The notes: generated from the sequence alone by a model not told the origin. Positions 8,168-36,472 are shown, counted from the first letter of the stretch. The stretch is DNA of 64,000 nt from an uncultured Clostridia bacterium (GCA_944381085.1 CALWJX010000002.1:50571-114570); one strand, 5' to 3'. Numbers and translations: made by a program.

Positions 8168-8198
8168 AAACGCAGAATAAAAAAAGAGGGGTTTGCGT

Positions 8199-8960
8199 AT
8201 GGATAATCAGCATAATCAACCTGAAGACAAAATCGAAGCGGGCGATATCAATATTGCCGAAAAGAGCAAATTTTTCAAGTGGCTGGATAATTTTTGGTAC
8301 CACTATAAGTGGACGTTGTTGATAGCGGTGTTTTTTATCGTTGTTCTGGTGGTAGGACTGGTTCAGCTTTTCAGCAAAACGGAGAGCGACGCCACCGTAA
8401 TGTATGCGGGACCTTATCAGCTGTCCAATGACGAAATAAACGCAATCAGAAATGATCTGACCTCTCTTTTGCCGTATGATTTTAACGGTGATGAAAAAAA
8501 ATATATTACATTTATTGAATACGCGGTTTTTTCCGAAGACGAGATTGAATCGTCAAATGAAATATATACAGACGAAAACGGCGAATATGTCGATATGGTG
8601 AGTCCGATGTATAATTCTTCTAAATACAGGGAATATCTGAGTTACACATCAACCGGCGAGTGTTCGATATATTTTGTAAGTGAGTACCTGTATGAAAATC
8701 TGAAAAATGAGGAAAGACTTGTGCCCATATCCGAGGTTCTTGGAGATACAGGAGAATATACGGTTGCCGACGGAGGCTATGGTATACGGCTGGGTGACAC
8801 CGATCTTTACAAATATTTTACGTCGCTTCAGATTTTGCCCGCCGACACGGTTGTATGCCTGATGAGACCGTATGTGTGGGGAGAAAGTTCAAACGAGGAA
8901 AAATATGAGTTTGCAAGCAGCTTTTTCAAAGAGCTTGCGGAATTTAAAATCAATGAGTAA
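8199..8960 (+). CDS. Hypothetical single-pass membrane protein
   Basis: ORF with SD AAGAGGGG 7 nt upstream of ATG 8199. One TM (WTLLIAVFFIVVLVVGLVQLF). No family recognised. Confidence 0.55.
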   Translation: MDNQHNQPEDKIEAGDINIAEKSKFFKWLDNFWYHYKWTLLIAVFFIVVLVVGLVQLFSKTESDATVMYAGPYQLSNDEINAIRNDLTSLLPYDFNGDEKKYITFIEYAVFSEDEIESSNEIYTDENGEYVDMVSPMYNSSKYREYLSYTSTGECSIYFVSEYLYENLKNEERLVPISEVLGDTGEYTVADGGYGIRLGDTDLYKYFTSLQILPADTVVCLMRPYVWGESSNEEKYEFASSFFKELAEFKINE

Positions 8961-9000
8961 GCATTGGCTTTAAGCCGCGATTAAATACGCCGTTATATGA

Positions 9001-9040
9001 ACGGGGATAACCTGATTTTATGGTTATCCCCGTTTTGAAC
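9001..9040 (+). terminator. Rho-independent terminator
   Basis: 12-bp stem ACGGGGATAACC / GGTTATCCCCGT, 9-nt loop, then TTTTGAAC. Confidence 0.75.
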
Positions 9041-9218
9041 GGTTTTTATAATAAACGCCGCGGAGAGAGAACAGTATTCGGCAATATTTTTGGAGGAGTA
9101 AAAACCGTTTAAATTCAAAAAAACATAAAAAAAATAATAAATTTAATATGCAGTTAATTATTTAATGTTATCATTATATATATCATGTAGATTTTGTATT
9201 CGAGTTCGGGAGGAGCCG

Positions 9219-12212
9219 ATGGATTTTATAGATAATCTTAATATAGATTTTGACGGGCAGACTGTAATTGGAATTGACATCGGGTCTACTACCGCGAAAA
9301 TTGTCGCCGTAAAAGACAACAGAGTTGTTTACTCCTGTTATGAGAGACATTTTTCACAGGTAAGACCCAAAACGCTTGAACTTATCAAAAGAGTCAAAGA
9401 CATTGTAAAAGATGACGGAATAAAAGTCGCGATATCCGGTTCGGCGGGGCTTGGAATGGCAAGGACTGCCGGAATCTCTTTTGTTCAGGAGGTTTTCGCT
9501 ACGGGTGAGACCGTAAAAAAATTTGAGCCTGACACGAGTGTCGTTATAGAGCTGGGCGGCGAGGACGCCAAAGTTATCTTTATAAAAGGCGGCATGGATG
9601 AAAGAATGAACGGTACCTGTGCCGGAGGCACAGGTGCATTTATTGACCAGATGGCAACGCTGCTTGCGGTTTCCGTAAGCGAGATGGATGAGTTGAGTCT
9701 GAAAGCTACGCGCGTTTATCCGATTGCCTCACGCTGCGGCGTTTTTGCCAAGACGGATATACAGCCCTTGCTCAATCAGGGAGCCGCGAAGGAAAATATC
9801 GCCGCGAGCATATATGCCGCCGTGGCTAATCAAACCATAGCGGGACTTGCTCAGGGAAGACGTATTGAAGGGAAGGTAATGTTTCTGGGAGGACCGTTGT
9901 ATTACTGCAAGGGACTGAGAAACGCCTTTAAAAAAGCTCTGAAGCTTGATGATGAAAACGCGGTATTTCCGGAATACGGTCTGTTTTCTGTTGCCCTTGG
10001 CGCCGCCATTTACGCCTCCGGACAAAAGGAAGTTTTTACATATGACGAGATAGAGTCAAAAATTGAGAAAAGTACACATGAGAGAACGGTCGCGCTTCAC
10101 GGAGAGCCTCTGTTTAAAAATCAGGAAGAATATGAGGAATTTAAGGCGCGTCACGCGAAAGCCTCGGTTGAATCTGTTTATCCTCCGGATTACAGAGACG
10201 GGGAAGCGTATCTGGGAATAGACTGCGGTTCTACAACGACCAAACTTGTGCTGATAGGTAAAAACGGTGAGATTCTTTACTCGTATTATGATTCCAATAA
10301 GGGCAATCCGGTTGAGATAGTCAGGGCGCAGCTTGAAGAGATCTATAAAATTTGCAAAGACAATATACAGATAAAGGCTTCCGCTGTTACCGGATACGGA
10401 GAGGATCTTATTAAAAACGCGTTTCATGTTGATTTCGGAATTGTGGAAACGATGGCGCACTTTACCGCCGCTCATCATTTCAACCCAAAGGTTGACTTCA
10501 TTCTGGACATAGGCGGTCAGGATATTAAATGCTTCAAGGTTAAAAATAACGCGATTGACAGTATAATGCTCAACGAGGCATGTTCTTCGGGATGCGGCTC
10601 GTTTATCGAGACATTTGCCCGTTCTATGGGCTACGGAATCGAGGAATTTTCAAAGCTCGGTCTTTTTTCCACGGGACCGGTGGATTTGGGCTCGAGATGT
10701 ACGGTTTTTATGAACTCGTCGGTAAAACAGGCTCAGAAAGACGGAGCCGACGTGGGGGATATCTCCGCCGGTCTTTCAAAGAGCGTTGTTAAAAACGCGA
10801 TCTATAAGGTTATCCGGGCTACAAGCGTGGAAGAGCTTGGCACTCAGATCGTGGTTCAGGGAGGTACTTTTTATAATGACGCCGTATTGCGCGCGTTTGA
10901 AAAGGAAATAGGCAGGGACGTAATCAGACCTTCTATAGCGGGGCTTATGGGCGCGTACGGCGCGGCGCTGTTCGCAAAGATGCAGAAGACAGAAAAGTCT
11001 TCCCTTATAGACAGAGAAAAGCTTGAAAAATTCACTCATACCTCGAAAGCCGCAAGCTGCCACGGATGTACCAACAACTGTCAGATAACCATCAATATTT
11101 TCAACGGCAACGAAAGATATGTTTCGGGCAACAAATGCGAAAAGGGAGCCGGACTCAAGGAAAGCTCTAAAGAAATTGAGCTTATACCCAATCTTCACAG
11201 ATATAAAAGAGATAAATTCCAAAAGCTTATGGACGACCCCGGAGACGGGACAAGAGGAACCGTAGGGCTTCCGCTGGCTTTGGGGATGTATGAGCTCGGT
11301 CCGCTGTGGTATACGTTTTTTAAAACGCTTGGGTATAAGGTGATTTTTTCGGGATTTTCAAACCGTTCGGTATACACAAAAGGACAGTATTCAATTCCGT
11401 CAGATACCGCGTGCTATCCGGCTAAGATTATGCACGGACATATAGAAACTCTCGTTGACAAAAACGCCGATATGATTTTCTATCCCTGTCTGACTTACAA
11501 TATCGATGAAAATATCAGCGATAACTGCTATAACTGCCCGGTAGTCGCCTATTATTCCGAATTGTTGTCCGGGAATATGGAGTCTTTGCGCAGTACCGAG
11601 TTTATATACCCTTATCTGAACATCAACAATAAAAAAGAGCTTGCTCAGGAGCTTTATTCCGTGTTTAAGGACAGGTCCGGAGGCTTTTCAAAGAAAGAAA
11701 TCAGAAACGCCGTGGATAAGGCGTTTGACGCTTACCGTGAATGGATGAAAGATATACGTGACGAAGGCGTTCGCGCGATAAAGTGGGCGGAGGAAAACGG
11801 CAAGCGGGTAATGATACTTGCCGGGCGTCCTTATCATATAGACCCGGAAATCGGTCACGGAATAGACAACCTTGCGGTGAGTCTCGGATTTTGCGTGGTA
11901 AGCGAGGACAGTATATCAGACCTCACGTCTCCTCCGAATGTCAATGTGCTCAATCAGTGGACATATCACGCGAGACTTTACGCAGCCGCGAAATACGCGA
12001 CCGAACACAGTAATACAGAGCTTGTTCAGTTGGTTTCTTTCGGATGCGGAATAGACGCTATAACCACGGACGAGGTTCGGGCTATACTTGAGGGCAAAAA
12101 CAAGCTGTATACGCAGATTAAAATAGATGAAATAACAAATTTGGGCGCTGTCAGGATACGCCTGAGAAGTCTTTTGGGCGCGCTTGACTTCGCCCGATAT
12201 TCCGATATTTGA
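9219..12212 (+). CDS. Fusion protein: two BcrAD/BadFG/HgdC-type activase ATPase modules plus a C-terminal dehydratase-like (DUF2229-type) domain
   Basis: Module 1: IGIDIGSTTAKIV...GGEDAKV...NGTCAGGTGAFID...SRCGVFAKTD. Module 2: LGIDCGSTTTKLV...GGQDIKC...NEACSSGCGSFIE...SRCTVFMNSS. Cys knot CHGCTNNC...C. Start at ATG 9219, with GGGAGGAG upstream. Confidence 0.85.
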   Translation: MDFIDNLNIDFDGQTVIGIDIGSTTAKIVAVKDNRVVYSCYERHFSQVRPKTLELIKRVKDIVKDDGIKVAISGSAGLGMARTAGISFVQEVFATGETVKKFEPDTSVVIELGGEDAKVIFIKGGMDERMNGTCAGGTGAFIDQMATLLAVSVSEMDELSLKATRVYPIASRCGVFAKTDIQPLLNQGAAKENIAASIYAAVANQTIAGLAQGRRIEGKVMFLGGPLYYCKGLRNAFKKALKLDDENAVFPEYGLFSVALGAAIYASGQKEVFTYDEIESKIEKSTHERTVALHGEPLFKNQEEYEEFKARHAKASVESVYPPDYRDGEAYLGIDCGSTTTKLVLIGKNGEILYSYYDSNKGNPVEIVRAQLEEIYKICKDNIQIKASAVTGYGEDLIKNAFHVDFGIVETMAHFTAAHHFNPKVDFILDIGGQDIKCFKVKNNAIDSIMLNEACSSGCGSFIETFARSMGYGIEEFSKLGLFSTGPVDLGSRCTVFMNSSVKQAQKDGADVGDISAGLSKSVVKNAIYKVIRATSVEELGTQIVVQGGTFYNDAVLRAFEKEIGRDVIRPSIAGLMGAYGAALFAKMQKTEKSSLIDREKLEKFTHTSKAASCHGCTNNCQITINIFNGNERYVSGNKCEKGAGLKESSKEIELIPNLHRYKRDKFQKLMDDPGDGTRGTVGLPLALGMYELGPLWYTFFKTLGYKVIFSGFSNRSVYTKGQYSIPSDTACYPAKIMHGHIETLVDKNADMIFYPCLTYNIDENISDNCYNCPVVAYYSELLSGNMESLRSTEFIYPYLNINNKKELAQELYSVFKDRSGGFSKKEIRNAVDKAFDAYREWMKDIRDEGVRAIKWAEENGKRVMILAGRPYHIDPEIGHGIDNLAVSLGFCVVSEDSISDLTSPPNVNVLNQWTYHARLYAAAKYATEHSNTELVQLVSFGCGIDAITTDEVRAILEGKNKLYTQIKIDEITNLGAVRIRLRSLLGALDFARYSDI

Positions 12213-12234
12213 ACTGTAAAGGATTTAGTATAAG

Positions 12235-13539
12235 ATGAACGATAACAAAAACACCTGCGCTTTTGCCGATGCTGAACAGGACGGACGGGTCGTATTCACT
12301 GAGGAGATGAAAAAAGATTACACCATTCTGCTGCCGAATATGCTTCCGAGACATTTCAGGATCCTTTCAAAGGTTTTTCAGTTTTACGGTTATCATACTG
12401 TTCTGCTTGAGGAAAACAGCGAGGAGGAGGCGAGAAAGGTAATAGACGCCGGACTGAGAAGTGTACATAACGACGCCTGTTATCCGGCATTGCTTGTCAT
12501 AGGTCAGTTTATCAGCGCGCTTGAAAGCGGGAAATATGACCCTCATAAAACCGCGCTGATGATGACACAGACCGGCGGAGGATGCCGCGCGTCCAACTAT
12601 ATATCCCTGATAAGAAAGGCGCTTAAAAAAGCGGGTTTCGGTTATGTCCCGGTAATATCTCTTAATTTTTCGGGGCTTGAGGACAATCCCGGATTTAAGA
12701 TAACAATACCGATGATTCACAGAGCGCTTTACGCGGTGCTTTACGGAGATCTACTGATGTCTCTGATTAATCAGACCCGCCCATATGAGACGGTAAAGGG
12801 AAGCGCGGAGGCGCTTGCGGACAAATGGGTAGACCGCCTGGTTGATGAGATGACCCACCATACCATTCGTTACTCCGCGGTAAAAAAGAATTATGACCGA
12901 ATAGTCTCCGATTTCGCCAAAATCGAGAAAACCAAAGAAAAAAAGGTCAAGGTGGGAATTGTCGGGGAAATATTTGTTAAATTTTCTCCGCTTGGCAATA
13001 ATAATCTTGAGGATTTTCTGGTTTCCGAAAACGCGGAACCGGTTATGGCGGGTCTTGTCGATTTTCTTTTGTACTGCATGTATAACCCTGTTGTGGACGC
13101 AAGACTGTACGGAAAAGGGAAAAAGACCGTATTTATATATAAAGCGGTATGCGCTTTTATTCAAAAAAAGCAAAATGATCTGATTAAGGCTATAAAAAAA
13201 GAGGGCAGCTTTACTCCGCCTTCCCGCTTTAAAAACACCCTGACGGCAAATGAAGGATATATCAGCAGCGGTGTAAAGATGGGAGAGGGATGGCTGCTTA
13301 CCGCCGAAATGCTTGAGCTTATACATGATGGCGTAAACAATATTGTCTGCGCCCAGCCTTTCGGATGTTTGCCCAATCACATCGTGGGTAAAGGAATGAT
13401 GAAGCCCATCAAAGAAAAACATCCCGATGTGAATATTGTCGCAATTGATTATGACCCGGGAGCAACCAGGATAAACCAGGAAAACAGGATTAAACTTATG
13501 CTCGCCAACGCAAACGAAGCTATGACCGTAAATGCCTGA
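12235..13539 (+). CDS. 2-hydroxyacyl-CoA dehydratase / benzoyl-CoA reductase subunit-like protein (HgdB/D-component family)
   Basis: NDACYPALLV, GGGCRASNY and CAQPFGCLPNH motifs are paralogous to the C-terminal domain of the preceding gene. The gap between the two genes is 22 nt. Confidence 0.75.
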   Translation: MNDNKNTCAFADAEQDGRVVFTEEMKKDYTILLPNMLPRHFRILSKVFQFYGYHTVLLEENSEEEARKVIDAGLRSVHNDACYPALLVIGQFISALESGKYDPHKTALMMTQTGGGCRASNYISLIRKALKKAGFGYVPVISLNFSGLEDNPGFKITIPMIHRALYAVLYGDLLMSLINQTRPYETVKGSAEALADKWVDRLVDEMTHHTIRYSAVKKNYDRIVSDFAKIEKTKEKKVKVGIVGEIFVKFSPLGNNNLEDFLVSENAEPVMAGLVDFLLYCMYNPVVDARLYGKGKKTVFIYKAVCAFIQKKQNDLIKAIKKEGSFTPPSRFKNTLTANEGYISSGVKMGEGWLLTAEMLELIHDGVNNIVCAQPFGCLPNHIVGKGMMKPIKEKHPDVNIVAIDYDPGATRINQENRIKLMLANANEAMTVNA

Positions 13540-13837
13540 ATTATGAATAATATCATAGCTCGTTCATGCTGACTGTCCGCGTGCCCTTCGGCATATTTTC
13601 AATCGAAGTCTATATACGGAAAGCATGAGTCCCCTTCATGCTTGTTGTGTGAAAAATATTCTCAAAATCCGTACATTACGGATAGTGTGAACACGCTTAA
13701 GCATAATATTAAATGAGGGGCAGAGCCCCATAATTCAATGTTTTCATTGGGAGATCGTATCTCCCCGCTTAAAATATCAAGCGGCGTCTGACTCTTAAAG
13801 GGAACATATTAATTTAGATATATGAGAGGATTTTAAC

Positions 13838-14311
13838 ATGGGAAAATTCAAGGAAAAAATGTACCGGTTTATGTATGGCAGATACGGTATCGACGACTTG
13901 TATAAGTTTTGCTTTTGGGTCATTATTGTGCTTCTTGCGGTCAATTTAATACTGTCTTTTGTTATTACAAATCAGACTGCCGAAATAGTAGTTACAACAT
14001 CGCTTTTCGTGTTGATACTGTTTCTGATGATATGGAATATAGCCAGAAGCTATTCCAGAAAAATCGAATCCCGCAGAAAGGAGAACGCGGCTTTTATGAA
14101 ACTGAAAAAAAAGATAAAAATGTTTTTCACCGGCAATACCTCGTCAAAAAGCAAAAGCGGAAATATTGATTCGGCGGAATATATTTTCCGTGATTGTCCG
14201 AATTGCTCGTCCGTATTGAGACTTCCGAGAAAAGACGGGAAAAATAAGGTAAAATGCCCCCGTTGCTCTCACAGCTTTTATGTAAAGTCAAAGCCTTACA
14301 AATCCAAATGA
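13838..14311 (+). CDS. Membrane protein with a C-terminal zinc ribbon
   Basis: Two TM helices, then CPNC...(17)...CPRC. SD GAGAGGA lies 7 nt upstream. Confidence 0.65.
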   Translation: MGKFKEKMYRFMYGRYGIDDLYKFCFWVIIVLLAVNLILSFVITNQTAEIVVTTSLFVLILFLMIWNIARSYSRKIESRRKENAAFMKLKKKIKMFFTGNTSSKSKSGNIDSAEYIFRDCPNCSSVLRLPRKDGKNKVKCPRCSHSFYVKSKPYKSK

Positions 14312-20805: not shown

Positions 20806-20992
20806 GAACAAGTTCGGGTAAACCTGAATAATACGCAAGTGTGAGAGACATGCTTATATGCAAAAGGCGTAATACAGAGAAAAAACATTCGGTGAGAGTT
20901 TTTTATGTCGGCATATAAGTACCACTTTCATGTTCAAATAAATATAAGAATCAAGAGTAAAAAAATCGGGTGGAACCGTGCATATAACTGCA

Positions 20993-21022
20993 CCCCGGAT
21001 ACGTTGAGTATCCGGGGTTTTT
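20993..21022 (+). terminator. Rho-independent terminator
   Basis: Perfect 10-bp stem CCCCGGATAC / GTATCCGGGG, 5-nt loop, then TTTTT. Confidence 0.85.
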
Positions 21023-21048
21023 GCCTGTACTTACATATGGAGGTGCGT

Positions 21049-22764
21049 ATGATATTAAACAGTGATTACAGGATAGTAATTTCCGAAAAATGCGCAGAGT
21101 CCGATAAATACGCGGCGAATATGCTGTCGGAATATCTGCGTAAAATGACTTCCGGCGCGTCGGATATCAAAATTATTTCCGACGCCGAAACGGAAAGAGA
21201 CTTTGAAATTATAATTGGCAAAACAAATCGCAAATCGGATGATCTCCCGCTCGTATCTCAAAAGGACGACAGCATACTGGTTGTCGCGCGCAAAGAAAAG
21301 CTTTATCTCGACGGTCAGAGCAAAAGGGCGGTGATTTACGCGGTAGTGGAACTGCTTGAGTATCTCGGATGCAGATTTTTTGCGGAGGATACGGAAAAAA
21401 TTCCGTGCCTTGAAAAAGCGGAAATACCCGACGACCTTTATATCGCCAAAACACCTGCATTTTCATACAGAGACGTATATTGGACCTGCGCGTATCCCCC
21501 CGAGCTCAGCGTAAAGCTGCGTCTCAACGGAGCGCTGCGCAACGAGGCGGGATTCGGAAGAACGCTTCCCGAATATCTGGGAGGCGGAATACAGTATGCC
21601 GGACCTCATTTTGTGCATACGTTTTGTATGATGGTGCCTCCCGATGAATATTTTGAAGCTCATCCCGAGTATTTTGCCATGATAAACGGAGAGAGGAGCT
21701 GTAAGCATCTGTACACTCAGATATGCCTTTCAAACCCGGATGTGCTTTCCATAGTCATAGAGAAAACCAAACAGTGGTGCAGAGAAAATCCGGACGCTAA
21801 AATTGTTTCGGTCTCACAGAACGACAGCTTTGTGACAGAATCCTATTGCACGTGTGAAAAATGCGCCGCTATAGACGCCGAGGAGGGCGCGCCGTCAGGG
21901 TCTCTTATACGCTTTGTAAACAAAGTGGCGCAGGAAGTTGAGAAAGAGTTTCCGGATGTGTTTGTGGATACTCTCGCGTATCAGTATTCGGTACAGCCTC
22001 CGAAAATCACAAAGCCGAGAAAAAATGTACTGATAAGGCTCTGCACCGGAGGCTGCTATACCCACTCTATCGAAGAATGCAAAAAGAACGCGGGTACCAG
22101 AGAAGCGTTTGAAAAATGGAGCAAAATATGCGATAATCTGTATGTATGGGATTATACCACAAACTTTCTTCAGTATCTTACACCCTTTGCAAATATGGCG
22201 GCTATGAGAAAAAACATTAAATTTTTCGCGGAACATAACGTGCGCGGCGTATTTATGCAGGGCAATTATCAGCCCGGTAAAAACGGAGAGTTCGGAGAAC
22301 TCAGGTCATACCTTATGGCAAAGGCGCTGTGGGACGCCGACTGCGATATGGATAAAGACGCGGAGGAATTTATCGATACCTATTACGGCGCGGGCGCAAA
22401 GTATATTAAGGAGTATCTGAAATATATTTACGAAAAGGGAAGGCTTGTGCATTTCACATGGGCAATGCCCTCAAAGGACATGTGGGCGGCGGTTATTCCC
22501 GACAGTGACCTTGAATATCTTGACAACCTTTGGAAAGACGCGAAGAGCGCGGCAAAGACAGGCAACAGTCCTGAGCGTTCTTTTGAGCATGTGGAAAGAA
22601 GCGAGCTTTCGCACAGGTGGTTTAAGCTTGAAGCCGGTAAAGGCGAATTTTCCGATTCGGATAAGGTTGAAAAACTTACGGAAGAGTTTTACGCGGATTG
22701 CCGAAGACTCGGGATTGAACGCTTAAGCGAGGGAGCGAACATCCCGGGAATACAGGCGGGATGA
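21049..22764 (+). CDS. DUF4838-type (GH20-like fold) protein, cytoplasmic
   Basis: PAFSYRD...HTF...HPEYFAMINGER...QICLSNPDV...VSVSQND...CTCEKC pattern as I recall it for DUF4838. Start at ATG 21049 (GGAGG 5 nt upstream), because the upstream ORF extension contains the terminator. Confidence 0.65.
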   Translation: MILNSDYRIVISEKCAESDKYAANMLSEYLRKMTSGASDIKIISDAETERDFEIIIGKTNRKSDDLPLVSQKDDSILVVARKEKLYLDGQSKRAVIYAVVELLEYLGCRFFAEDTEKIPCLEKAEIPDDLYIAKTPAFSYRDVYWTCAYPPELSVKLRLNGALRNEAGFGRTLPEYLGGGIQYAGPHFVHTFCMMVPPDEYFEAHPEYFAMINGERSCKHLYTQICLSNPDVLSIVIEKTKQWCRENPDAKIVSVSQNDSFVTESYCTCEKCAAIDAEEGAPSGSLIRFVNKVAQEVEKEFPDVFVDTLAYQYSVQPPKITKPRKNVLIRLCTGGCYTHSIEECKKNAGTREAFEKWSKICDNLYVWDYTTNFLQYLTPFANMAAMRKNIKFFAEHNVRGVFMQGNYQPGKNGEFGELRSYLMAKALWDADCDMDKDAEEFIDTYYGAGAKYIKEYLKYIYEKGRLVHFTWAMPSKDMWAAVIPDSDLEYLDNLWKDAKSAAKTGNSPERSFEHVERSELSHRWFKLEAGKGEFSDSDKVEKLTEEFYADCRRLGIERLSEGANIPGIQAG

Positions 22765-26325: not shown

Positions 26326-26594
26326 GGAGAGTCATTGCCGTTGTTTTGATAACTTTACAGCGGGAGAATTATTAATCTCCCGCTGCGATTATACTGCGGT
26401 TTATATGTTCGGGCTATATTTATTTAACTGATTATACATATAGTCTTTTTTAAGGGAATATGGTATAATGACGGCATACAACGTAAAGAACTCAAAAGCA
26501 TAACATTTACCGGTTGTATGCAATGCAAAACTGTCCGGGATTATTTGTGGTATACGTTTTTGCTTGATTGAGCGGACGTGAGGGGCGTATAGAG

Positions 26595-27332
26595 ATGGAA
26601 TTTGAAAAAAACGACATTACATTAAAAAACGGTATACAGATAGATGAGCGCTTAAAACACATTGCTTTCATAATGGACGGAAACGGACGCTGGGCGAAAA
26701 GAAAAGGCTTGCCGAGAGAATTGGGGCATAGACAGGGAGCTGCTGCTTTCAGCAATATCGCGAAATACTGTGAAAAAATCGGGATAAAATATGTTACCGT
26801 ATATGCTTTTTCAACCGAAAACTGGAAAAGACCGAAAAAGGAAATAGACGCGATATTGAAATTGCTTGACAATTATCTTGACCAGCGGTACAACGACCGT
26901 GTGAGCGTGCGTTTTATAGGAGATGTCAGTGTGTTTGACGACAGACTGAAAAATAAGATATCGGCAGTCGAAAAAGAGACCTCGGGACGTGAGCTTGTGC
27001 TGAATATCGCGCTCAATTACGGTTCGAGAGCAGAGCTTGTCAATGTATGCAACAGGCTTTTAAAGGAGGGTAAAAACGAGATTTGCGAATCCGATATATC
27101 CTCGCGCCTGTATACCGGAGATTGCCCGGACCCCGATCTGATCGTAAGGACGGGAGGGGATATACGTCTGTCCAATTTTATGCTTTGGCAGGCGGCTTAT
27201 TCCGAGCTGTATTTTACCGACACGCTGTGGCCGGATATGACAAGTGAGGAAGTTGATAAGGCGATAGCCGACTTTTATTCGAGAAAAAGACGCTTCGGAG
27301 GACTTGATAAACAAGTCTCCGAAAATCCATGA
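26595..27332 (+). CDS. uppS: Isoprenyl transferase (undecaprenyl diphosphate synthase)
   Basis: HIAFIMDGNGRWA, FSTENW and RTGGDIRLSNFMLWQAAYSE motifs. Start at ATG 26595, with GAGGGG upstream. Confidence 0.92.
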   Translation: MEFEKNDITLKNGIQIDERLKHIAFIMDGNGRWAKRKGLPRELGHRQGAAAFSNIAKYCEKIGIKYVTVYAFSTENWKRPKKEIDAILKLLDNYLDQRYNDRVSVRFIGDVSVFDDRLKNKISAVEKETSGRELVLNIALNYGSRAELVNVCNRLLKEGKNEICESDISSRLYTGDCPDPDLIVRTGGDIRLSNFMLWQAAYSELYFTDTLWPDMTSEEVDKAIADFYSRKRRFGGLDKQVSENP

Positions 27333-27369
27333 AAGACAAACCGCTTTGTAAGCTGAACGGAGCTGAGAT

Positions 27370-28224
27370 ATGTTAAAGAGAATTATTACGGCTATTATCG
27401 CACTGTGTATATTTGTACCCGTACTGGTATTCAGCGATACATTGGCGCTTCCGATAGTCATGTCGGCGTGCGCGATAATCGGATGCTATGAAATGCTTTG
27501 CTGTACCGGACAGAAAAAAAATATTTTCATTTCGGTTCCGATTTATATTTCCGCGGCGGCATTTCCTGTGTTTATGAGATTTTCATATCTCAACTTTACT
27601 GTCGGTGATTTCAATAAAATCGCGCTTGGAGTGATTTTTGTTTTAATCGTATACACGCTCGGAGTGGCGGTTTTTTATCATAAAAGGCTGTCGGTTACCG
27701 ACGCGGCAATGATTTTTACCGCGTGTATTTACATTATAGCGGCGTTTACTTCGGTAGTATATATACATGATTTTATCAGACACGGAAAATATATATATCT
27801 GCTTGTTTTTCTGTGCGCTTGGATGACGGACAGCTTCGCGTATTTTACAGGCCGATTTCTCGGAAAACATAAGCTTATTCCCGATGTGAGCCCCAAAAAG
27901 ACCGTGGAGGGCGCGGTCGGAGGAGTGGTTTTCTGCGTTATAACTACGGTTGTGTTTGGATTTGTCATTGAAAAATTTTTCAATGCCGACGGACAGATCA
28001 CCGCGAATTATATGGTGCTCGCGTTGAGCGGAGTGCTTATTTCGGTGGTCACGCAGGTCGGAGACCTGATAATGTCGGTTATTAAGAGACACTACGGTAT
28101 AAAAGATTACGGAAAGATTTTCCCGGGGCACGGCGGCATTCTTGACAGATTTGATTCGGTATTGGCGGCGTCGGTTATTCTCGCGTTCATTTGTACTTAT
28201 TTTGATCTTTTGGCTTCCGTGTAA
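27370..28224 (+). CDS. cdsA: Phosphatidate cytidylyltransferase
   Basis: Polytopic membrane protein with SPKKTVEGAVGG...GDLIMSVIKR...IFPGHGGILDRFDS. Confidence 0.9.
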   Translation: MLKRIITAIIALCIFVPVLVFSDTLALPIVMSACAIIGCYEMLCCTGQKKNIFISVPIYISAAAFPVFMRFSYLNFTVGDFNKIALGVIFVLIVYTLGVAVFYHKRLSVTDAAMIFTACIYIIAAFTSVVYIHDFIRHGKYIYLLVFLCAWMTDSFAYFTGRFLGKHKLIPDVSPKKTVEGAVGGVVFCVITTVVFGFVIEKFFNADGQITANYMVLALSGVLISVVTQVGDLIMSVIKRHYGIKDYGKIFPGHGGILDRFDSVLAASVILAFICTYFDLLASV

Positions 28225-28325
28225 TTTTTGAAAATCATTTTATCTGAGCAATATTCCGTTTTTGACAGAATACTGTTGTTTGGGTAAATTCAATTGTGTC
28301 AAAAGTTTTTGAAAGGAAAGTGTTG

Positions 28326-29516
28326 ATGGGTAAAACACATTATCCGGAAATTATTATACTTGGTTCTACGGGTTCTGTCGGGACACAGGCGACTGAGGTG
28401 GCTGCCGCAAACAATATCAGAGTAAGGGCGATTTCCGCCGGCAAAAATGTATCAAAAGCAGAAGAACAGGCAAGAAGATTTAAAGCGGAAGCCTGTGCGA
28501 TGAGCGATGAGGCGGCAGCCCGGGAACTTTGTGTTAGGCTCAGGGACACGTCTGTTAAGATATATTCGGGCAATGACGGCATTTGTGATATGATACATGA
28601 GGTTGAGTGTGAGAGCGAAAACGGTCAGACGGTAATCAATTCAATCGTGGGGGAGGCAGGGCTGAAACCCACGCTGTCAGTCATCGAAAGCGGCAAAAAG
28701 CTTGCGCTTGCGAACAAAGAGTCCCTTGTGGTCGGAGGAGAAGCGGTCATGAAGGCCGCGAAATCGGCACGTACAGAAATAATTCCGGTAGACAGCGAAC
28801 ATTCGGCAATTTTTCAGTGTCTTCGGGCGGGGAAAAAAAGCGAGGTCAAAAGGCTTCTGCTCACGGCGTCCGGGGGACCTTTTTTCGGATATACAAAAAG
28901 TCAGCTTGAAAATGTGACGCTTGACGACGCGCTGTCACATCCTACATGGAAAATGGGGTCAAAAATAACTGTTGACAGCGCGACTCTTATGAATAAGGGA
29001 TTTGAGGTTATTGAGGCGGTTCATCTGTTCGGGATTTTACCCGATAAAATAGACGTGCTTATTCACCGGGAAAGTATAATTCATTCTGCCGTTGAATATA
29101 TTGACAACAGTGTCATAGCGCAGATGTCGCTACCCGATATGAGACACTGTATCCAGTATGCGCTTACCCATCCGGACAGATGTGAGGCGTGTACTGAGGA
29201 ACTCGACCTGTTTAAAGTGGGCAGACTTACCTTCAACAAACCCGATTACGAGGCGTTTCCGTTGCTTGAGACCGCGGTCAAAGCAATAGGCGAGGGAGGA
29301 GCTTTGCCCGGAGTGCTGAACGCGGCAAATGAGGAGGCTGTTTCGGCGTTTTTAAACCGGAAGATAAGGTTTTGTGATATATCCGATATAGTTTGCCGTA
29401 CTATGGAACATTATTCTCACGTGAGCAACGTCAATGAGTTGAGTGATATTTTTGAGGTGTGCGACGAGGCGCGCGAATATGCAGATAATTTGACCGCGGA
29501 AAGGAATTTATATTGA
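28326..29516 (+). CDS. dxr: 1-deoxy-D-xylulose-5-phosphate reductoisomerase
   Basis: ILGSTGSVGTQ, LANKESLV, DSEHSAIFQC and NKGFEVIEA motifs. ATG 28326, with GAAAGGAAAG upstream. Confidence 0.93.
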   Translation: MGKTHYPEIIILGSTGSVGTQATEVAAANNIRVRAISAGKNVSKAEEQARRFKAEACAMSDEAAARELCVRLRDTSVKIYSGNDGICDMIHEVECESENGQTVINSIVGEAGLKPTLSVIESGKKLALANKESLVVGGEAVMKAAKSARTEIIPVDSEHSAIFQCLRAGKKSEVKRLLLTASGGPFFGYTKSQLENVTLDDALSHPTWKMGSKITVDSATLMNKGFEVIEAVHLFGILPDKIDVLIHRESIIHSAVEYIDNSVIAQMSLPDMRHCIQYALTHPDRCEACTEELDLFKVGRLTFNKPDYEAFPLLETAVKAIGEGGALPGVLNAANEEAVSAFLNRKIRFCDISDIVCRTMEHYSHVSNVNELSDIFEVCDEAREYADNLTAERNLY

Positions 29517-29612
29517 TTTGAAGAAAATACAACAGTTATATACATCCGGGATATGACATAAAATAGATATGGTTTTGCTATACATATACCTAAAACGGAT
29601 GGGGGATTATTA

Positions 29613-30818
29613 ATGATTATATTATATGTCCTTTTGACATTGATACTGTTGAGCATTATGGTGGTTATTCATGAGCTCGGACATTTCATATTTGCCAAGC
29701 TGTTCAAAGTAACGGTTCTGGAATTTTCCATAGGAATGGGTCCGGCAATTTTTACAACCAAAAAAAGAATAAAGAAAAACAAAGTTGACAGCGGATTTGA
29801 ACTGTCCTCGGAGTATAGATCCGATGAAGTCAATCCGGATAATAATGCCGAGGTGAAATCAGATCGGGAAACTTCTTCTTCGTCGGACGACGCTCCGCAG
29901 ATTCCGGAAAAAACGGTTTTCAGCATAAGGGCGTTTCCGATAGGCGGGTATGTGAGTATGGCGGGTGAAGACGGTTCTTCCGACGATGTAAACGCTTTTT
30001 CAAATAAAAAGGCGTGGCAGAAGCTTGTTATAACTCTTGCCGGTCCCGTAATGAATATTTTACTTGGGATTATTTGCATGTTCACGCTTGTCGGAATCGA
30101 GGCTGTTAAAGACGGACGTCTGGCGTCCACGGTAGTCGCCGAGTTCAAGACCGAAAACGCGGACGGAAGTCCGTATGAGTCGATATCGGACAAGGGAGCG
30201 GAACCTTTAATGCCGAATGACAAAATAATCAAGGTCAATAACGTATACGTGTTTACGGGACAGGAGCTCGTATATGAGATCACAAATCAGGGCTATGAAC
30301 CGGTTGACCTTGTGGTTGAAAGAAACGGCGAGAGAATCACATTGCATGACGTGTCTTTTCCGACCATAGAGACTCAGGGAGTGACTTTGGGGGAAGAGGA
30401 TTTTAAGATATACGCCGAAAGACCAAGCTTTAAGAATATTATGAAACATGCTTTTTTCCGATCTTTTTCAACGGTGAAGATGTTTTTCGACAGTATTGTT
30501 GATATGATAGGCGGAAGATACGGTCTGGACGCCGTTTCCGGACCTGTGGGCGTTGCCGGTGTAGTAGGTCAGGCAACTCAGGCGGGATTTTCCACCCTTT
30601 TGTATCTTTTTACCATAATTACAATGAATCTTGCGGTATTTAACCTTTTGCCGTTTCCGGCGCTTGACGGCGGAAATATTATATTTCACCTGTATCAGTT
30701 AATAACCGGAAAATGCGTGAAAAAGGAAGTTGAACAGGCGATAAATACTGTGGGTATCATGCTTCTTATGGCTTTGGCTTTGTTTATTACCGTGAGAGAT
30801 ATATTGAACCTGTTTTAA
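29613..30818 (+). CDS. rseP: RIP site-2 metalloprotease RseP/RasP (M50)
   Basis: HELGHF, GGYVSMAGED, a PDZ-like segment and NLLPFPALDGG. Contains a ~50-aa low-complexity insert after TM1. Confidence 0.88.
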   Translation: MIILYVLLTLILLSIMVVIHELGHFIFAKLFKVTVLEFSIGMGPAIFTTKKRIKKNKVDSGFELSSEYRSDEVNPDNNAEVKSDRETSSSSDDAPQIPEKTVFSIRAFPIGGYVSMAGEDGSSDDVNAFSNKKAWQKLVITLAGPVMNILLGIICMFTLVGIEAVKDGRLASTVVAEFKTENADGSPYESISDKGAEPLMPNDKIIKVNNVYVFTGQELVYEITNQGYEPVDLVVERNGERITLHDVSFPTIETQGVTLGEEDFKIYAERPSFKNIMKHAFFRSFSTVKMFFDSIVDMIGGRYGLDAVSGPVGVAGVVGQATQAGFSTLLYLFTIITMNLAVFNLLPFPALDGGNIIFHLYQLITGKCVKKEVEQAINTVGIMLLMALALFITVRDILNLF

Positions 30819-30972
30819 AAACAGGTTGAAAAAATTGATGCTGAAAATGATTTTTCCGAGTTCTTTTTCGGTATACCTATGTCTTGTCTGTAAAATTTTC
30901 GTAAGTGCAAATTTTTTCATGGCATACATTACAGACATAAGTACGGTAAAATGAAAGGAATTATATTTCTAA

Positions 30973-32076
30973 ATGAATTATAACAGTATAAGAAGAAAAT
31001 GCAGGGAAGTAAAGATAGGCAGAGTCGGTATAGGAGGAGAAAACAAAATCGCCGTTCAGTCCATGACGAATACCGACACAAGGGATATGCGGTCAACGCT
31101 TATGCAGGTAAAGGAGCTCGCGAGCGCGGGATGCGACATAGTAAGAATTACGGTACCCGACGAGGAGTCCGCCAAAACCATTGAATTCATCAAGGAAAAC
31201 GGAATAAAAACGCCTATTGTCGCGGACATTCATTTTGATTATAAGGCGGCAATAAGGGCGGCCGAGTGCGGCGCGGACAAAATACGCATCAATCCCGGAA
31301 ACATCGGAGACGACAACAGAGTGCGTATGGTCGCCGAAACCTGTAAAAAGTACAATATACCGATAAGAATAGGCGTAAACAGCGGCTCGCTTGAAAAACA
31401 TATACTTGAAAAATTCGGCGGACCTACCCCGCGGGCTTTGTGCGAAAGCGCGCTGTATCACGCCTCACTGCTTGAAAAATATGAATTTTACGACATTGTA
31501 ATATCCATCAAGTCTTCCGACGTGGCGCAGATGACAGAAGCGAACAGGATGATTGCGCAACAATGTGATTATCCCATACACCTCGGAGTTACCGAGGCGG
31601 GAAGTGAACATATGGGGATAATAAAGAGTTCCGCCGGTATCGGAGCTTTGCTGTGTCAGGGAATCGGAGACACATTTCGTGTATCGCTCACGGCAGACCC
31701 TATAAAAGAAGTAGCGGCCGCCAAGGATATTCTGAACGCGCTGTCGGTAGAGGGTCAGTGCGGAATGGACATAGTAAGCTGTCCTACGTGCGGCAGAACC
31801 AAAATAGACCTTATAAGACTTTCCGCCGAATTTGAGAACGCCGCAAAAGCGCAAGGACTTCTGTCGTTTCCGGTAAAGGTGGCGCTTATGGGCTGCGCGG
31901 TGAACGGACCGGGAGAGGCGCGAGAAGCCGACATAGGCATAGCGGGCGGCAGCGGGGAGGCGCTTTTGTTCTCTCACGGCAAAGTATTGGGAAAAATAAG
32001 CGAAGACAATATTATAAACGTGTTGATTGAGGAAATAAAAAAGTTGAAAGCGGAAAGAAACGATAAAAATGGCTAA
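30973..32076 (+). CDS. ispG: 4-hydroxy-3-methylbut-2-en-1-yl diphosphate synthase
   Basis: VQSMTNTDT, IRINPGNIG, CPTCGRT and GCAVNGPGEA motifs. Confidence 0.93.
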   Translation: MNYNSIRRKCREVKIGRVGIGGENKIAVQSMTNTDTRDMRSTLMQVKELASAGCDIVRITVPDEESAKTIEFIKENGIKTPIVADIHFDYKAAIRAAECGADKIRINPGNIGDDNRVRMVAETCKKYNIPIRIGVNSGSLEKHILEKFGGPTPRALCESALYHASLLEKYEFYDIVISIKSSDVAQMTEANRMIAQQCDYPIHLGVTEAGSEHMGIIKSSAGIGALLCQGIGDTFRVSLTADPIKEVAAAKDILNALSVEGQCGMDIVSCPTCGRTKIDLIRLSAEFENAAKAQGLLSFPVKVALMGCAVNGPGEAREADIGIAGGSGEALLFSHGKVLGKISEDNIINVLIEEIKKLKAERNDKNG

Positions 32077-35000
32077 AACATTTTTGCAGATATTCGGCAA
32101 ATACGCTCCGAACGAAAGAGACGCGGAAATACTGCTGTCAGCCGATAATATCAAGCTTCAGGCGGATAAGGGAAACCGCATAATACAGATTTACGCGAGT
32201 TTTCCGAACATTATTGAAAAAGACACTCTTTACCGGATAGAAAATGAAATCTCAAAAACGTACGGTCTTTCGTGGGTTAAAATATTGCCGCGTTATCCGA
32301 GTGAGCTTTTCCGTGAGAACTATGTGCCCGAAATACTGAAAGAAACCGAAAACGTCGGTATTGTTGCGAAAGGCTTTTTCAATAAATACAGATATAATCT
32401 TGAGAATAATACTCTTACGGTTGAAATTCCTTTTGCCGAGGGAGGGGTTAAGCTTTTGTATGACGCGCGCACTCCCGAGGTTATGCAGGGGATAATTTTT
32501 TCCGAGTTCGGCATTAAGCTCAATGTAAATATAGTACATACCGAAGATGAAATATTTCTTTCGAGCAATAATTCGCTTCAGAAAGCAATTGAAGAATACG
32601 ACAGGAGATTGGCGGCTGAGGCCGCAAACTATAACGCGAGAATCAATACGGCGCAGCCGACAGAGGAAAAAGTTGAGCTTCCGAGAGTTCAGACACTGTT
32701 TGACGAGGACAGCACTCCTGTGATTATTGACGGAGTATGTCGGATAGGGCACACCTTTTTTGATATTTCCGCCTGTGAATATGTATACGGCGATACGTTT
32801 GAAATAAAGCCTGTGGCAATCGCTTCAATTACGAGTCCTGTCAGAAATATTGTCATTCTGGGAAGTGTTTTCGGATTCAACAAGGAACTCAATCGCGCGG
32901 GTGATAAATATAACATAACTTTTTGTCTGAGCGACGGAAATTCCTCTATTGAAGTAAAGTGCTTTTCTCTTTCACCCGAGGACGCGGATGAAATTTCTGG
33001 AGCGGCAAAGGACGGGAACGTATTGGCGCTCAAAGGATACGCGAAGAAAGAGGTGAGAAGGGACAAAACGGAAGGACCCGATTTTCAGTTTCATCTTAAC
33101 GGCATCGCTAAAATCAAAAAGCTTCCGCGCACCGACAACGCTCCGGTGAAAAGAGTGGAGCTGCATCTGCACACAAATATGTCCAACATGGACGCGCTGA
33201 TACCGCCGGATGTCGCGGTTAAACAGGCAAAAGCGTGGGGACATCCGGCTATAGCGATTACCGACCACGGAAATGTTCAGGGTTATCAGGAAGCTATGCT
33301 GGCAAGCGAAAAAACCGGACAAAAAGTAATATACGGAATAGAGGCTTATTTTGTAAACGACACCGCGGGAGCCATTTACGGAAGCTATAACGGCGGATTG
33401 TATGATGAAGCGATTGTTTTTGATATTGAAACCACGGGCCTGTCGGTTCAGAACTGCAAGATAACCGAAATAGGAGCTGTCAGAATAAAGGACGGACGGG
33501 TTGTTGAGGAATTCAATACCTTTGTGAATCCGGAAGTCCCGATTCCCGAGGAAATTACCAAGCTAACTTCAATTACCGACGACATGGTAGCCGACGCGCC
33601 CAAGACGCCCGAAGCGCTTGACATGTTTTTCGGATTTATCGGAGACGGTGACGGTCAGAATAAAAAACTGCTGATTGCTCATAACGCGGCGTTCGATACG
33701 GGGTTTATCAGATATGCCGCCAAAATGTACGGCAAAGAATTTGACAATCCGTACCTTGACACCGTGGCGCTGTCAAGATATATAAATCCGGGACTCAAAA
33801 ATCATAAGCTCGATACCTTGGCGGAGCATTATAAACTCGGAGATTTCAATCACCACAGGGCCTCGGATGACGCGAAAATGCTCGCGCACATCTACTTCAA
33901 GCTGCTTGCGGATATGAAGGACAGGGATATTTCAAGCTTTAACGTGCTGAGGCGCGATATGAGTACAAATTCAAATCCGCTTAAGCTTAAGACATATCAT
34001 CAGATAATTCTTGTGAAAAACAAAATCGGTCTGAAAAATTTGTATAAGCTTATATCATACAGTTATCTTAAATATTTCAGGAAGAATCCGCGTATTCCCA
34101 AGACTGAGCTTGAAAAACACAGGGAAGGTCTGATTATCGGTTCGGCGTGCGAGGCGGGAGAGCTTTTTTCGGCTATACTTGAAAACAAGCCCGAGTCTGA
34201 AATAGAGGAAATAGTCAATTTTTACGATTATCTGGAGATTCAGCCGATTTCAAATAACCGGTTTCTTATCGCCGAGGAAAAGGCAAAGGACGACGAAGAC
34301 CTGAGAAATTTCAACCGCCGTATCGTAGAGCTGGGCGAGAAGTACAACAAGCCGGTTGTAGCGACCTGTGACGCGCATTTTCTGAATAAGGAAGACGAAA
34401 TTTACAGAAAAATACTGCTCGCGGGGCAGAAATACTCGGATTATGACAGGGATATCAATCTTTATTACAGAACTACTGAGGAGATGCTTGAAGAATTTTC
34501 ATATCTCGGAGAAGAAAAAGCTTACGAGGTGGTCGTCACAAACACAAACCTAATAAATGATATGATAGATTCGGATATCAGACCGTTTCCGAAGGGTACG
34601 TTTACTCCGAGCATGGAGGGCGCGGAAGAAGACCTGAATCGGATATGCTACGAAAGAGCAAGATCGATGTATGGCGATCCGCTTCCGGAGATAGTGGAAC
34701 AGCGTTTGAATAAGGAGCTTACCTCAATAATAAACAACGGTTTTGCGGTGCTCTACATGATAGCTCAGAAGCTGGTCTGGTACAGTGAGAGTCAAGGGTA
34801 TCTTGTAGGCTCAAGAGGTTCAGTGGGCTCGTCCTTTGTAGCTTCAATGGCGGGTATTTCGGAAGTAAACCCGCTGCCGCCGCATTATTGGTGCCCGCAG
34901 TGCCGTTACAGCGATTTTTCAAACCCGGACAAGGTGGGTTCGGGATTTGATCTGCCGGACAGGCTGTGTCCCAAGTGCGGTCATAAGCTCAACGCGGACG

Positions 35001-36472
35001 GGCACAATATACCTTTTGAGACGTTTCTCGGATTTTACGGGGACAAGTCCCCTGATATAGACCTTAATTTTTCCGGAGAAGTCCAGGGAAAGGTACATAA
35101 ATATACCGAAGAACTGTTCGGCGCGGAAAACGTGTTCCGTGCGGGGACTATAGGTACGCTTGCCGATAAAACGGCTTTCGGATATATACAGAAATACCTT
35201 GAGGAAAAGGGAGTAAGTCTGCCCCGCGCGGAGGTAAACCGCATAATTTCCTGCTGTGTCGGAGTAAAGCGGTCTACGGGTCAGCACCCCGGCGGAATAG
35301 TCGTTGTTCCGAAAGAGTATGAGATATACGATTTCTGCCCGGTTCAGCATCCGGCGGATGACCCGAATTCGGATATAGTTACCACCCATTTTACTTTTGA
35401 ATATCTTCATGATACCCTGCTTAAGCTTGACGAACTCGGACACGATATTCCGACCAAGTACAAATATCTTGAGAGATATTCAAATACCAGCGTAATGGAC
35501 GTGGCGATGAATGACAAATCTGTCTATGAGCTGTTTTTGTCCACAAAGCCTCTCGGTGTGACGCCGGAGGATATCGACTGTAATATCGGTACATTCGGAC
35601 TTCCGGAATTCGGCACCCGGTTTGTAATCAAAATGGTGGAGGAGGCAAAGCCCAAATCCTTTGCCGACCTTTTGCAGATTTCGGGACTGTCTCACGGAAC
35701 CGACGTGTGGACCGGAAACGCCCAGGACCTTATAAATGAGGGTATATGCGACATTTCACATGTTATAGGATGCCGTGACAACATAATGAACGACCTTATC
35801 GGATACGGGGTTGAAAAATCGCACTCATTCAAAATCATGGAGGCGGTCAGAAAGGGAAAAGGTCTTACTCCGGAATTTGAAAGTGAGATGAGAGCGGCAA
35901 ATGTACCCGATTGGTACATAAGCTCATGCAAAAAGATAAAGTATATGTTTCCGAAAGCGCACGCCGCCGCTTATGTCATGTCCGCCATACGTCTCGGGTG
36001 GTATAAGGTACATATTCCGATTGCGTTTTACTGCACGATGTTCACGGTTTCTCCCGGCGGGTTTGACGCTGAAATCGTCATGGGCGGAAAGAGAAAGGTC
36101 GTTGAAACGATAAGGAATATCGAAAAAAGAGGCAAGGAAGCTTCTCCGAAAGAGCAGGCGAGCATTCCGACTCTGCAGCTTGTGAATGAAGCTTTTGCGC
36201 GCGGATTCAAATTTCTTCCGGTAAATATAATCAAATCCGACGCTTCGGCGTTCGTGCCGGAGGACGGCAAGATAAGAATGCCTTTTTCGGCTTTGGGCGG
36301 ACTCGGCGAAAACGCCGCCGCCAATATTGTTGCCGCGAGGGCTGAGGAGCCTTTCTTTTCGGTCGAGGATTTGCAGATACGCGCGAAGCTTTCAAAATCC
36401 GTGATAGATATACTGCGAAAATGCGGAGCGCTTGAGGGGCTTGACGAGACAGACCAGCTTACATTTTTCTGA
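32069..36472 (+). CDS. polC: DNA polymerase III, PolC-type
   Basis: 1467 aa. PHP domain (HLHTNMS), DEDD exonuclease (VFDIETTGL...HNAAFD...HRASDDA), a zinc-finger module and the Pol III alpha core. Overlaps ispG by 8 nt. Confidence 0.97.
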   Translation: MAKTFLQIFGKYAPNERDAEILLSADNIKLQADKGNRIIQIYASFPNIIEKDTLYRIENEISKTYGLSWVKILPRYPSELFRENYVPEILKETENVGIVAKGFFNKYRYNLENNTLTVEIPFAEGGVKLLYDARTPEVMQGIIFSEFGIKLNVNIVHTEDEIFLSSNNSLQKAIEEYDRRLAAEAANYNARINTAQPTEEKVELPRVQTLFDEDSTPVIIDGVCRIGHTFFDISACEYVYGDTFEIKPVAIASITSPVRNIVILGSVFGFNKELNRAGDKYNITFCLSDGNSSIEVKCFSLSPEDADEISGAAKDGNVLALKGYAKKEVRRDKTEGPDFQFHLNGIAKIKKLPRTDNAPVKRVELHLHTNMSNMDALIPPDVAVKQAKAWGHPAIAITDHGNVQGYQEAMLASEKTGQKVIYGIEAYFVNDTAGAIYGSYNGGLYDEAIVFDIETTGLSVQNCKITEIGAVRIKDGRVVEEFNTFVNPEVPIPEEITKLTSITDDMVADAPKTPEALDMFFGFIGDGDGQNKKLLIAHNAAFDTGFIRYAAKMYGKEFDNPYLDTVALSRYINPGLKNHKLDTLAEHYKLGDFNHHRASDDAKMLAHIYFKLLADMKDRDISSFNVLRRDMSTNSNPLKLKTYHQIILVKNKIGLKNLYKLISYSYLKYFRKNPRIPKTELEKHREGLIIGSACEAGELFSAILENKPESEIEEIVNFYDYLEIQPISNNRFLIAEEKAKDDEDLRNFNRRIVELGEKYNKPVVATCDAHFLNKEDEIYRKILLAGQKYSDYDRDINLYYRTTEEMLEEFSYLGEEKAYEVVVTNTNLINDMIDSDIRPFPKGTFTPSMEGAEEDLNRICYERARSMYGDPLPEIVEQRLNKELTSIINNGFAVLYMIAQKLVWYSESQGYLVGSRGSVGSSFVASMAGISEVNPLPPHYWCPQCRYSDFSNPDKVGSGFDLPDRLCPKCGHKLNADGHNIPFETFLGFYGDKSPDIDLNFSGEVQGKVHKYTEELFGAENVFRAGTIGTLADKTAFGYIQKYLEEKGVSLPRAEVNRIISCCVGVKRSTGQHPGGIVVVPKEYEIYDFCPVQHPADDPNSDIVTTHFTFEYLHDTLLKLDELGHDIPTKYKYLERYSNTSVMDVAMNDKSVYELFLSTKPLGVTPEDIDCNIGTFGLPEFGTRFVIKMVEEAKPKSFADLLQISGLSHGTDVWTGNAQDLINEGICDISHVIGCRDNIMNDLIGYGVEKSHSFKIMEAVRKGKGLTPEFESEMRAANVPDWYISSCKKIKYMFPKAHAAAYVMSAIRLGWYKVHIPIAFYCTMFTVSPGGFDAEIVMGGKRKVVETIRNIEKRGKEASPKEQASIPTLQLVNEAFARGFKFLPVNIIKSDASAFVPEDGKIRMPFSALGGLGENAAANIVAARAEEPFFSVEDLQIRAKLSKSVIDILRKCGALEGLDETDQLTFF

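Follow-up and report, generated by a model that had tools for sequence, protein, structure and literature searches.

A split plsA–plsR gene pair in an uncultured Clostridia bacterium, very probably encoding an anaerobic plasmalogen synthase

A 64,000-nucleotide (nt) stretch of DNA from an uncultured Clostridia bacterium (GCA_944381085.1, CALWJX010000002.1:50571–114570; hereafter the window, with positions counted from its first letter) carries at 9219–13539 two adjacent genes, gene 1 and gene 2, which resemble the ATP-driven iron–sulphur enzymes of the benzoyl-CoA reductase (BCR), 2-hydroxyacyl-CoA dehydratase (HAD) and double-cubane cluster protein (DCCP) group. A preliminary description, made from the sequence alone, had taken the pair for an orphan reductase-like module whose substrate could not be predicted. 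The analysis reported here makes it very probable that the pair is instead the plsA–plsR operon for anaerobic plasmalogen synthase, the two-gene system characterised in Clostridium perfringens. The coordinates of the genes and their parts are collected in Table 1.

Table 1. Features of the gene pair proposed as plsA–plsR, in window coordinates
Feature	Position	Strand	Remarks
plsA (gene 1)	9219..12212	+	997 aa, ~110 kDa; order Act1, Act2, 4-Cys knot, Red1
plsR (gene 2)	12235..13539	+	434 aa, ~49 kDa; Red2, paralogous BCR/HAD-fold partner
Act1, first HgdC-type ATPase module	9264..10022	+	residues ~16–268; putative bridging [4Fe-4S] ligands C134, C173
Act2, second HgdC-type ATPase module	10212..11000	+	residues ~332–594; C455, C494
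4-Cys knot, C614-x2-C617-x3-C621-x18-C640	11058..11138	+	PlsA residues 614–640, between Act2 and Red1
Red1, DUF2229 reduction/dehydration domain	11259..12209	+	residues 681–997; invariant C732, C773, C943
Terminator-like hairpin, GGGGATAACC...GGTTATCCCC then T-runs	9003..9046	+	sequence reading; overlapping terminator-like site also listed
Ribosome-binding site for plsA, GGGAGGAG	9208..9215	+	sequence reading
Intergenic spacer plsA/plsR, weak AAGGA inside	12213..12234	+	22 nt, sequence reading

The frame of gene 1 is open from 9165 to 12212 and offers two candidate starts, ATG 9165 and ATG 9219. The second is the likely one, because a ribosome-binding site stands just before it and database gene calls for an identical protein also give 997 aa; the start proposed earlier is thereby retained, and the length of 998 aa given with it corrected. 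Both the length of gene 2 and its distance from the stop codon of gene 1 had been read correctly. The pair covers 4321 bp, counted from the first start codon to the last stop. The hairpin upstream, as read from the sequence, would mark the end of the preceding gene and set the 5′ limit of the plsAR unit. No further paralogue of either gene was found elsewhere within the window, nor were any Rfam elements found in it.

The N-terminal part of gene 1 consists of two ATPase modules, matched twice by BcrAD_BadFG in Pfam (E 4.9e-66) and over two stretches by the NCBIfam acyl-CoA dehydratase activase model TIGR00241 (E 7.7e-76). Both modules align end to end with the activators HgdC (1hux_A) and HadI (4eht_A), with Act1 matching HgdC over its full length (phmmer E 6e-28), and Act2 matching HadI at E 1.5e-32 and HgdC at E 4e-29. 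The cysteine pairs of Act1 and Act2 coincide with Cys127 and Cys166 of HgdC, which are the ligands of its subunit-bridging [4Fe-4S] cluster. The features that define an HgdC/HadI-type activator, two bridging cysteines per protomer and an actin-fold ATPase, are therefore present, with the two protomers fused in one chain. This agrees with the two complete HgdC/BcrAD/BadFG-type modules of the preliminary description, whose quoted cysteine motifs (NGTCAGGTG, SRCGVFAKTD, NEACSSGCG, SRCTVFMNSS and CHGCTNNC) were all located in the sequence.

Between the second activator module and the catalytic domain lies a knot of four cysteines, a putative additional metal site that may bind Fe-S or Zn, and may serve as an extra electron relay or as a structural metal site. 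C. perfringens PlsA has it, as do 29 of 31 diverse homologues. From two fused homologues (P0323 and P0333) a knot module of ~60 aa has been deleted as a block, which suggests that not every homologue needs it.

The C-terminal part of gene 1 is a DUF2229 domain (residues 681–899, E 5e-71), and gene 2 has no match in either Pfam or NCBIfam. The two had been described as paralogous on the strength of shared motifs; the SFGCG and PFGCL motifs are present as described, whereas D(T/A)ACYPA shrinks to a common ACYPA (DTACYPA in gene 1, NDACYPA in gene 2). The resemblance is marginal by BLASTP (gene 1 C-terminus against gene 2, E 0.032) and gains support when diverse alignments of Red1 and gene 2 are compared by hhalign (92.8%, E 4e-7, 103 columns), where C732 pairs with C82 and C773 with C117. 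The AlphaFold2 models of the two proteins lead to the same structures. For gene 2 (mean predicted local distance difference test score, pLDDT, 85) the top 12 Foldseek matches in the PDB all belong to HadBC (3o3m), the benzoyl-CoA reductases BzdNO (8s02) and MbdON (9g87), or DCCP (7yyl/6eno), with E from 6e-6 to 1.5e-3, template modelling scores of ~0.4–0.5 and 9–13% identity, the closest fold being that of HadC (3o3m_B). For residues 628–997 of gene 1 (pLDDT 76.5) the top three are MbdON (9g87_B), DCCP (7yyl_A) and BzdNO (8s02_B), at E 7e-7 to 6e-6. Together, alignments and models support gene 2 as a distant paralogue of the DUF2229 domain of gene 1. The overall anatomy proposed at the outset, an activator pseudo-dimer with a paralogous catalytic partner, is thus upheld by the domain matches, the alignment with the HgdC cysteines, the hhalign comparison and the fold models.

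Conservation of cysteines was assessed in 31 homologues of gene 1, including 14 fused proteins at ~40% identity, and in 81 diverse homologues of gene 2 at 31–54% identity. Every protein of the first set (31/31) has C134, C173, C455, C494, C732, C773 and C943; in the second, C82 and C117 never vary and C378 is kept in 99%. Each catalytic domain, Red1 and Red2, therefore has only three conserved cysteines. The double cubane [8Fe-9S] of DCCP is reportedly held by six cysteine ligands within one subunit. Three per domain follow the HAD-type three-cysteine [4Fe-4S] pattern, and the label "double-cubane-like" attached to the catalytic domain at first is accordingly not supported; a double-cubane cluster in these domains was rejected on the cysteine count.

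Among solved structures, HgdC and HadI come closest to the activator modules and HadC comes closest to gene 2 in fold, and many databases annotate such proteins in the same vein; on these grounds the pair could be a true 2-hydroxyacyl-CoA dehydratase fused to its activator and active in amino-acid fermentation. This reading can be given next to no credence. The catalytic-domain family HGD-D (PF06050) is absent from gene 2 even at E ≤ 10 and from gene 1 at E ≤ 0.01, in a profile hidden Markov model search of the kind first suggested, which recovered BcrAD_BadFG twice and DUF2229 in gene 1. The likeness to HadBC, at 9–13% identity, is one of fold only, and no HAD comes up when the PDB is searched with a sequence profile. 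Genes for a CoA-transferase or a 2-hydroxyacid dehydrogenase are absent from the vicinity in every locus examined.

The enzyme that does match over its length is the plasmalogen synthase of C. perfringens, PlsA and PlsR (CPE1194/CPE1195; UniProt Q8XL48/Q8XL47; Jackson et al. 2021 ACS Chem Biol 16:6). As summarised in later articles (PMC12838417, PMC9702350, PMC10191378, PMC8788747), heterologous expression identified a diacyl glycerophospholipid as its substrate and a plasmalogen as its product; the pls genes confer plasmalogen synthesis on Escherichia coli, and the proteins are described as members of the BCR/HAD family with activation and reduction/dehydration domains. The CPE1194/1195 fragment cloned by Jackson et al. 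is given as 4199 bp (PMC12838417). To compare sequences directly, the C. perfringens locus was located with a query built from the published forward primer for cloning plsA (PMC12838417, Table S6): its gene-specific part, made degenerate at codon third positions and extended by the invariant GxDxG, was scanned against species-representative genomes. Six loci were returned, five from Clostridium, including C. perfringens strain v20 (locus L011), and one from Fusobacterium; the exact published primers had no match in strain v20, and the codon-degenerate form matched. Locus L011 holds an open reading frame (ORF) of 975 aa from a TTG start, followed by one of 420 aa, with a start-to-stop span of 4199 bp. 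It is identified as the C. perfringens plsA–plsR locus because this span equals that of the cloned fragment and its ends match the primers: the encoded termini MYYKIGI... and ...EYLLNN agree with those encoded by the primers except for one strain substitution. The predicted mass of its PlsA, 109.9 kDa, is compatible with the reported SUMO-tagged band of ~128 kDa.

Set against the C. perfringens proteins, gene 1 reaches 60% identity with PlsA over 974 aa (E = 0), and gene 2 reaches 56% with PlsR over 407 aa (E 1e-169). These values are above those among validated orthologues, since the Enterococcus faecalis and Lactococcus cremoris enzymes are 48–55% (PlsA) and 41–42% (PlsR) identical to those of C. 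perfringens (PMC12838417). The Pfam architecture of C. perfringens PlsA is that of gene 1 (two PF01869 and PF09989, the latter being DUF2229); its PlsR gives only a faint DUF2229 match and none to HGD-D. In both organisms the operon consists of two genes in the same order, with 4199 bp in C. perfringens and 4321 bp in the window, and the pair is adjacent and in this order in 6/6 of the Clostridium and Fusobacterium loci retrieved. All activase, knot and catalytic cysteines of the C. perfringens proteins are retained. The window proteins differ in length, PlsA by 22 and PlsR by 14 additional aa, most of them at the N-termini, and the host differs too, being an uncultured Clostridia bacterium with Ruminococcaceae metagenome-assembled genomes as its nearest named relatives. 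For the window pair, then, orthology, architecture, conserved cysteines, fold, and the pairing or fusion of both genes all agree with PlsA/PlsR. Its likely function is to convert the sn-1 acyl ester of membrane glycerophospholipids, by ATP-coupled reduction and dehydration, into an alk-1′-enyl ether.

This leaves little of the orphan reading, in which an ATP-driven low-potential BCR/HAD/DCCP reductase would act on a small-molecule substrate that could not be predicted, and which is now highly improbable. The generic names under which databases list these proteins, "2-hydroxyacyl-CoA dehydratase" and "acyl-CoA dehydratase activase", speak for such a reading, as do the missing Pfam and NCBIfam match of gene 2 and a genomic context that gives no clue to a substrate; with labels of this sort, and in the absence of a PlsR model in either database, a reader of the sequence alone naturally sees an orphan. 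Against it stands full-length, colinear orthology, at an identity above that among validated orthologues, to an enzyme whose substrate has been assigned by experiment; and missing pathway context is to be expected, since an enzyme acting on finished membrane lipids needs no pathway neighbours. The outcome that had been named as fatal to the orphan claim, orthologues with an assigned substrate, has in substance been found, the context being lipid remodelling rather than a fermentation operon. PlsAR shares the activator fold, the bridging cysteines and the catalytic fold with HgdAB/HgdC, HadBC/HadI, the Bzd/Mbd benzoyl-CoA reductases and DCCP/DCCP-R, together with the logic of ATP-coupled injection of low-potential electrons. 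Unlike in these systems, its activator is duplicated and fused in cis, its catalytic domains are only 9–13% identical to theirs and escape detection by sequence profile, and its substrate is a membrane lipid ester, whereas HAD, BCR and DCCP enzymes act on CoA thioesters, aromatic rings or small molecules.

A closer competitor is the glycerol ester reductase Ger, a "modified PlsA" in which the same machinery reduces the sn-1 ester further, to a saturated 1-O-alkyl ether. The Ger homologues of Thermotoga maritima (Tmari_0479) and Desulfatibacillum alkenivorans (SHJ90043) share with the window pair the BBD core of two BcrAD_BadFG and one DUF2229, as well as ATP-driven Fe-S chemistry on the sn-1 ester, and the domain requirements for alkyl-ether synthesis are called unresolved by the authors who described Ger. 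The Ger enzymes described are, however, single polypeptides with HGD-D (PF06050) segments in their C-terminal part, in the arrangement BBDHDDH or BBDHDHDH, and differ from PlsAR in their saturated product. The window pair is split in two genes, as is the plasmalogen-forming enzyme of C. perfringens to which it is 56–60% identical, and no HGD-D match was found in gene 2, in C. perfringens PlsR or in nine fused representatives. That the pair encodes a Ger-type enzyme is, on this evidence, very unlikely.

Further support for the plsAR identity comes from fusions. A search of 1.84 billion representative proteins yielded 3639 relatives of gene 2, many of them proteins of 1340–1480 aa colinear with gene 1 followed by gene 2, and representatives of these are 39–49% identical to gene 1 and 31–47% to gene 2. 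In facultative anaerobes the plsA and plsR parts are described as forming one ORF, and the colinear fusions match this single-ORF plsA, which supports the identification. The single-ORF PlsA of E. faecalis (EF1327/Q835P9), L. cremoris and Bifidobacterium longum subsp. suis, compared here by description, has the same four modules, Act1-Act2-Red1-Red2, in one polypeptide of ~1400 aa, where the window has two genes 22 nt apart. Among the relatives, the genes for PlsA and PlsR are adjacent, overlapping or fused. In one homologue of 1364 aa (P0333) the order is reversed, with a PlsR-like domain at 7–410 preceding a PlsA-like part at 433–1358, which shows that fusion of the two parts has occurred independently on more than one occasion.

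The pls genes are reported to be widespread in Clostridiales and other anaerobes, and the distribution of plasmalogen synthesis is reported to be sporadic. Named hosts among the relatives include Entomospira, a Mycoplasmatota bacterium and the eukaryote Barthelona. The homologue from this last, an anaerobic eukaryote, is a fused protein of 1415 aa (P0362, strain PCE, NCBI KAL0229736.1) encoded on a contig of 2.17 Mb; it may be a contaminant, or a sign that a protist acquired anaerobic plasmalogen synthesis laterally.

Several points weigh against the identification as plsA–plsR. The C. perfringens record used comes from strain v20, other than the published experimental strain, and differs synonymously at the primer sites. 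When a diverse PlsR alignment was run as a profile against the copy of the PDB used, no sequence relative of PlsR emerged; the sequence relatives of PlsA in that copy were of the activator type only (HgdC, HadI, MbdQ/P and DCCP-R), and no structure of PlsA or PlsR was found there. The published distinction between PlsA/R and Ger rests on loose differences in domain architecture, and Ger has been set apart here by description. Function in this organism, finally, is predicted from sequence and models.

A working model of the enzyme can be drawn by analogy with the BCR/HAD family and from the proposal published for C. perfringens PlsAR; from these we infer, for this organism, the cluster types, the electron donor, the reaction steps and the product. 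Act1 and Act2 of PlsA would pair as an intramolecular HgdC-like pseudo-dimer, with one [4Fe-4S] cluster held between C134/C173 and C455/C494, and this cluster would take its electron from a low-potential donor in the cell, for instance ferredoxin or flavodoxin. ATP hydrolysis would then drive the electron uphill into the heterodimer of Red1 (C732, C773, C943) and Red2, that is PlsR (C82, C117, C378), each of which is predicted to carry a three-cysteine [4Fe-4S] cluster, as in HadB/HadC. There, the sn-1 acyl ester carbonyl of a diacyl glycerophospholipid would be reduced in two sequential one-electron steps, with protonation and dehydration yielding the 1-O-alk-1′-enyl (vinyl ether) lipid.

The locus is of a kind already known since 2021 and widespread in anaerobes, and gives no sign of a new kind of system. 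It is unlikely that the knot is an undescribed additional Fe-S relay or regulatory metal site confined to plasmalogen synthases and that the enzyme of this clade differs from C. perfringens PlsAR in its product (a saturated ether) or its lipid substrate. The main value of the analysis is a corrected annotation, databases still naming these proteins after the dehydratases and their activases. It also predicts plasmalogens, which are of interest for host–microbe signalling and protection from oxidative stress, in this uncultured gut or rumen-type Clostridia bacterium. The missing solved structure and in-vitro biochemistry are a gap of the whole PlsA/PlsR family rather than of this locus.

The surroundings of the pair are those of housekeeping DNA, with rsmE, greA, pyk, glyA, thrS, a pyrH-like gene, uppS, cdsA, dxr, rseP and ispG in the window. 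Its immediate neighbours are a membrane protein, a zinc-ribbon protein and pyk, as first described, with greA upstream in addition. In the loci of metagenomic relatives the two genes remain linked amid changing flanks (glyS, enolase, sigma factors, cysS, prophage), so that the gene pair itself is the conserved unit of the neighbourhood. No CoA-transferase, electron-transfer flavoprotein or aromatic-degradation genes were found near the pair, either in the window, where their absence had been remarked before, or in the metagenomic relative loci examined.

The zinc-ribbon protein downstream (13838–14311, forward strand) has 157 aa, with one or more N-terminal transmembrane segments and a C-terminal CxxC-x17-CxxC zinc ribbon, and belongs to an uncharacterised, Clostridia-restricted family of which 307 clusters were found. 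Its gene follows plsR in four genomes, the window and L006, L007 and L015 (39–48% identity). Four other relatives (L017–L020) have it in the same greA...pyk synteny but lack plsAR there, and for this reason an obligate third subunit of PlsAR was rejected; the sequence comparisons indicate that the protein is probably not a PlsAR partner. The block that these four share with the window (8193–14311) comprises rsmE, a PucR-like regulator, an S41 peptidase, greA, a 251-aa membrane protein, (LOR), the zinc-ribbon protein, pyk and lactamase_B. Within this conserved synteny plsAR is variable, having been gained or lost between the genes for the 251-aa membrane protein and the zinc-ribbon protein, and its variable presence at this site fits the sporadic distribution reported for plasmalogen synthesis.

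Further along the window, uppS, cdsA, dxr, rseP (M50) and ispG form the classical Firmicutes cluster (26568–36472, forward strand), followed by an ORF of 1467 aa that we take to be probably polC. cdsA is a phospholipid-synthesis gene, but it stands 14 kb from plsAR in this unrelated conserved cluster. Among the housekeeping genes beside thrS, a forward-strand gene at 20905–22764 encodes a protein of 619 aa with a strong match to DUF4838 (E 6.5e-104).

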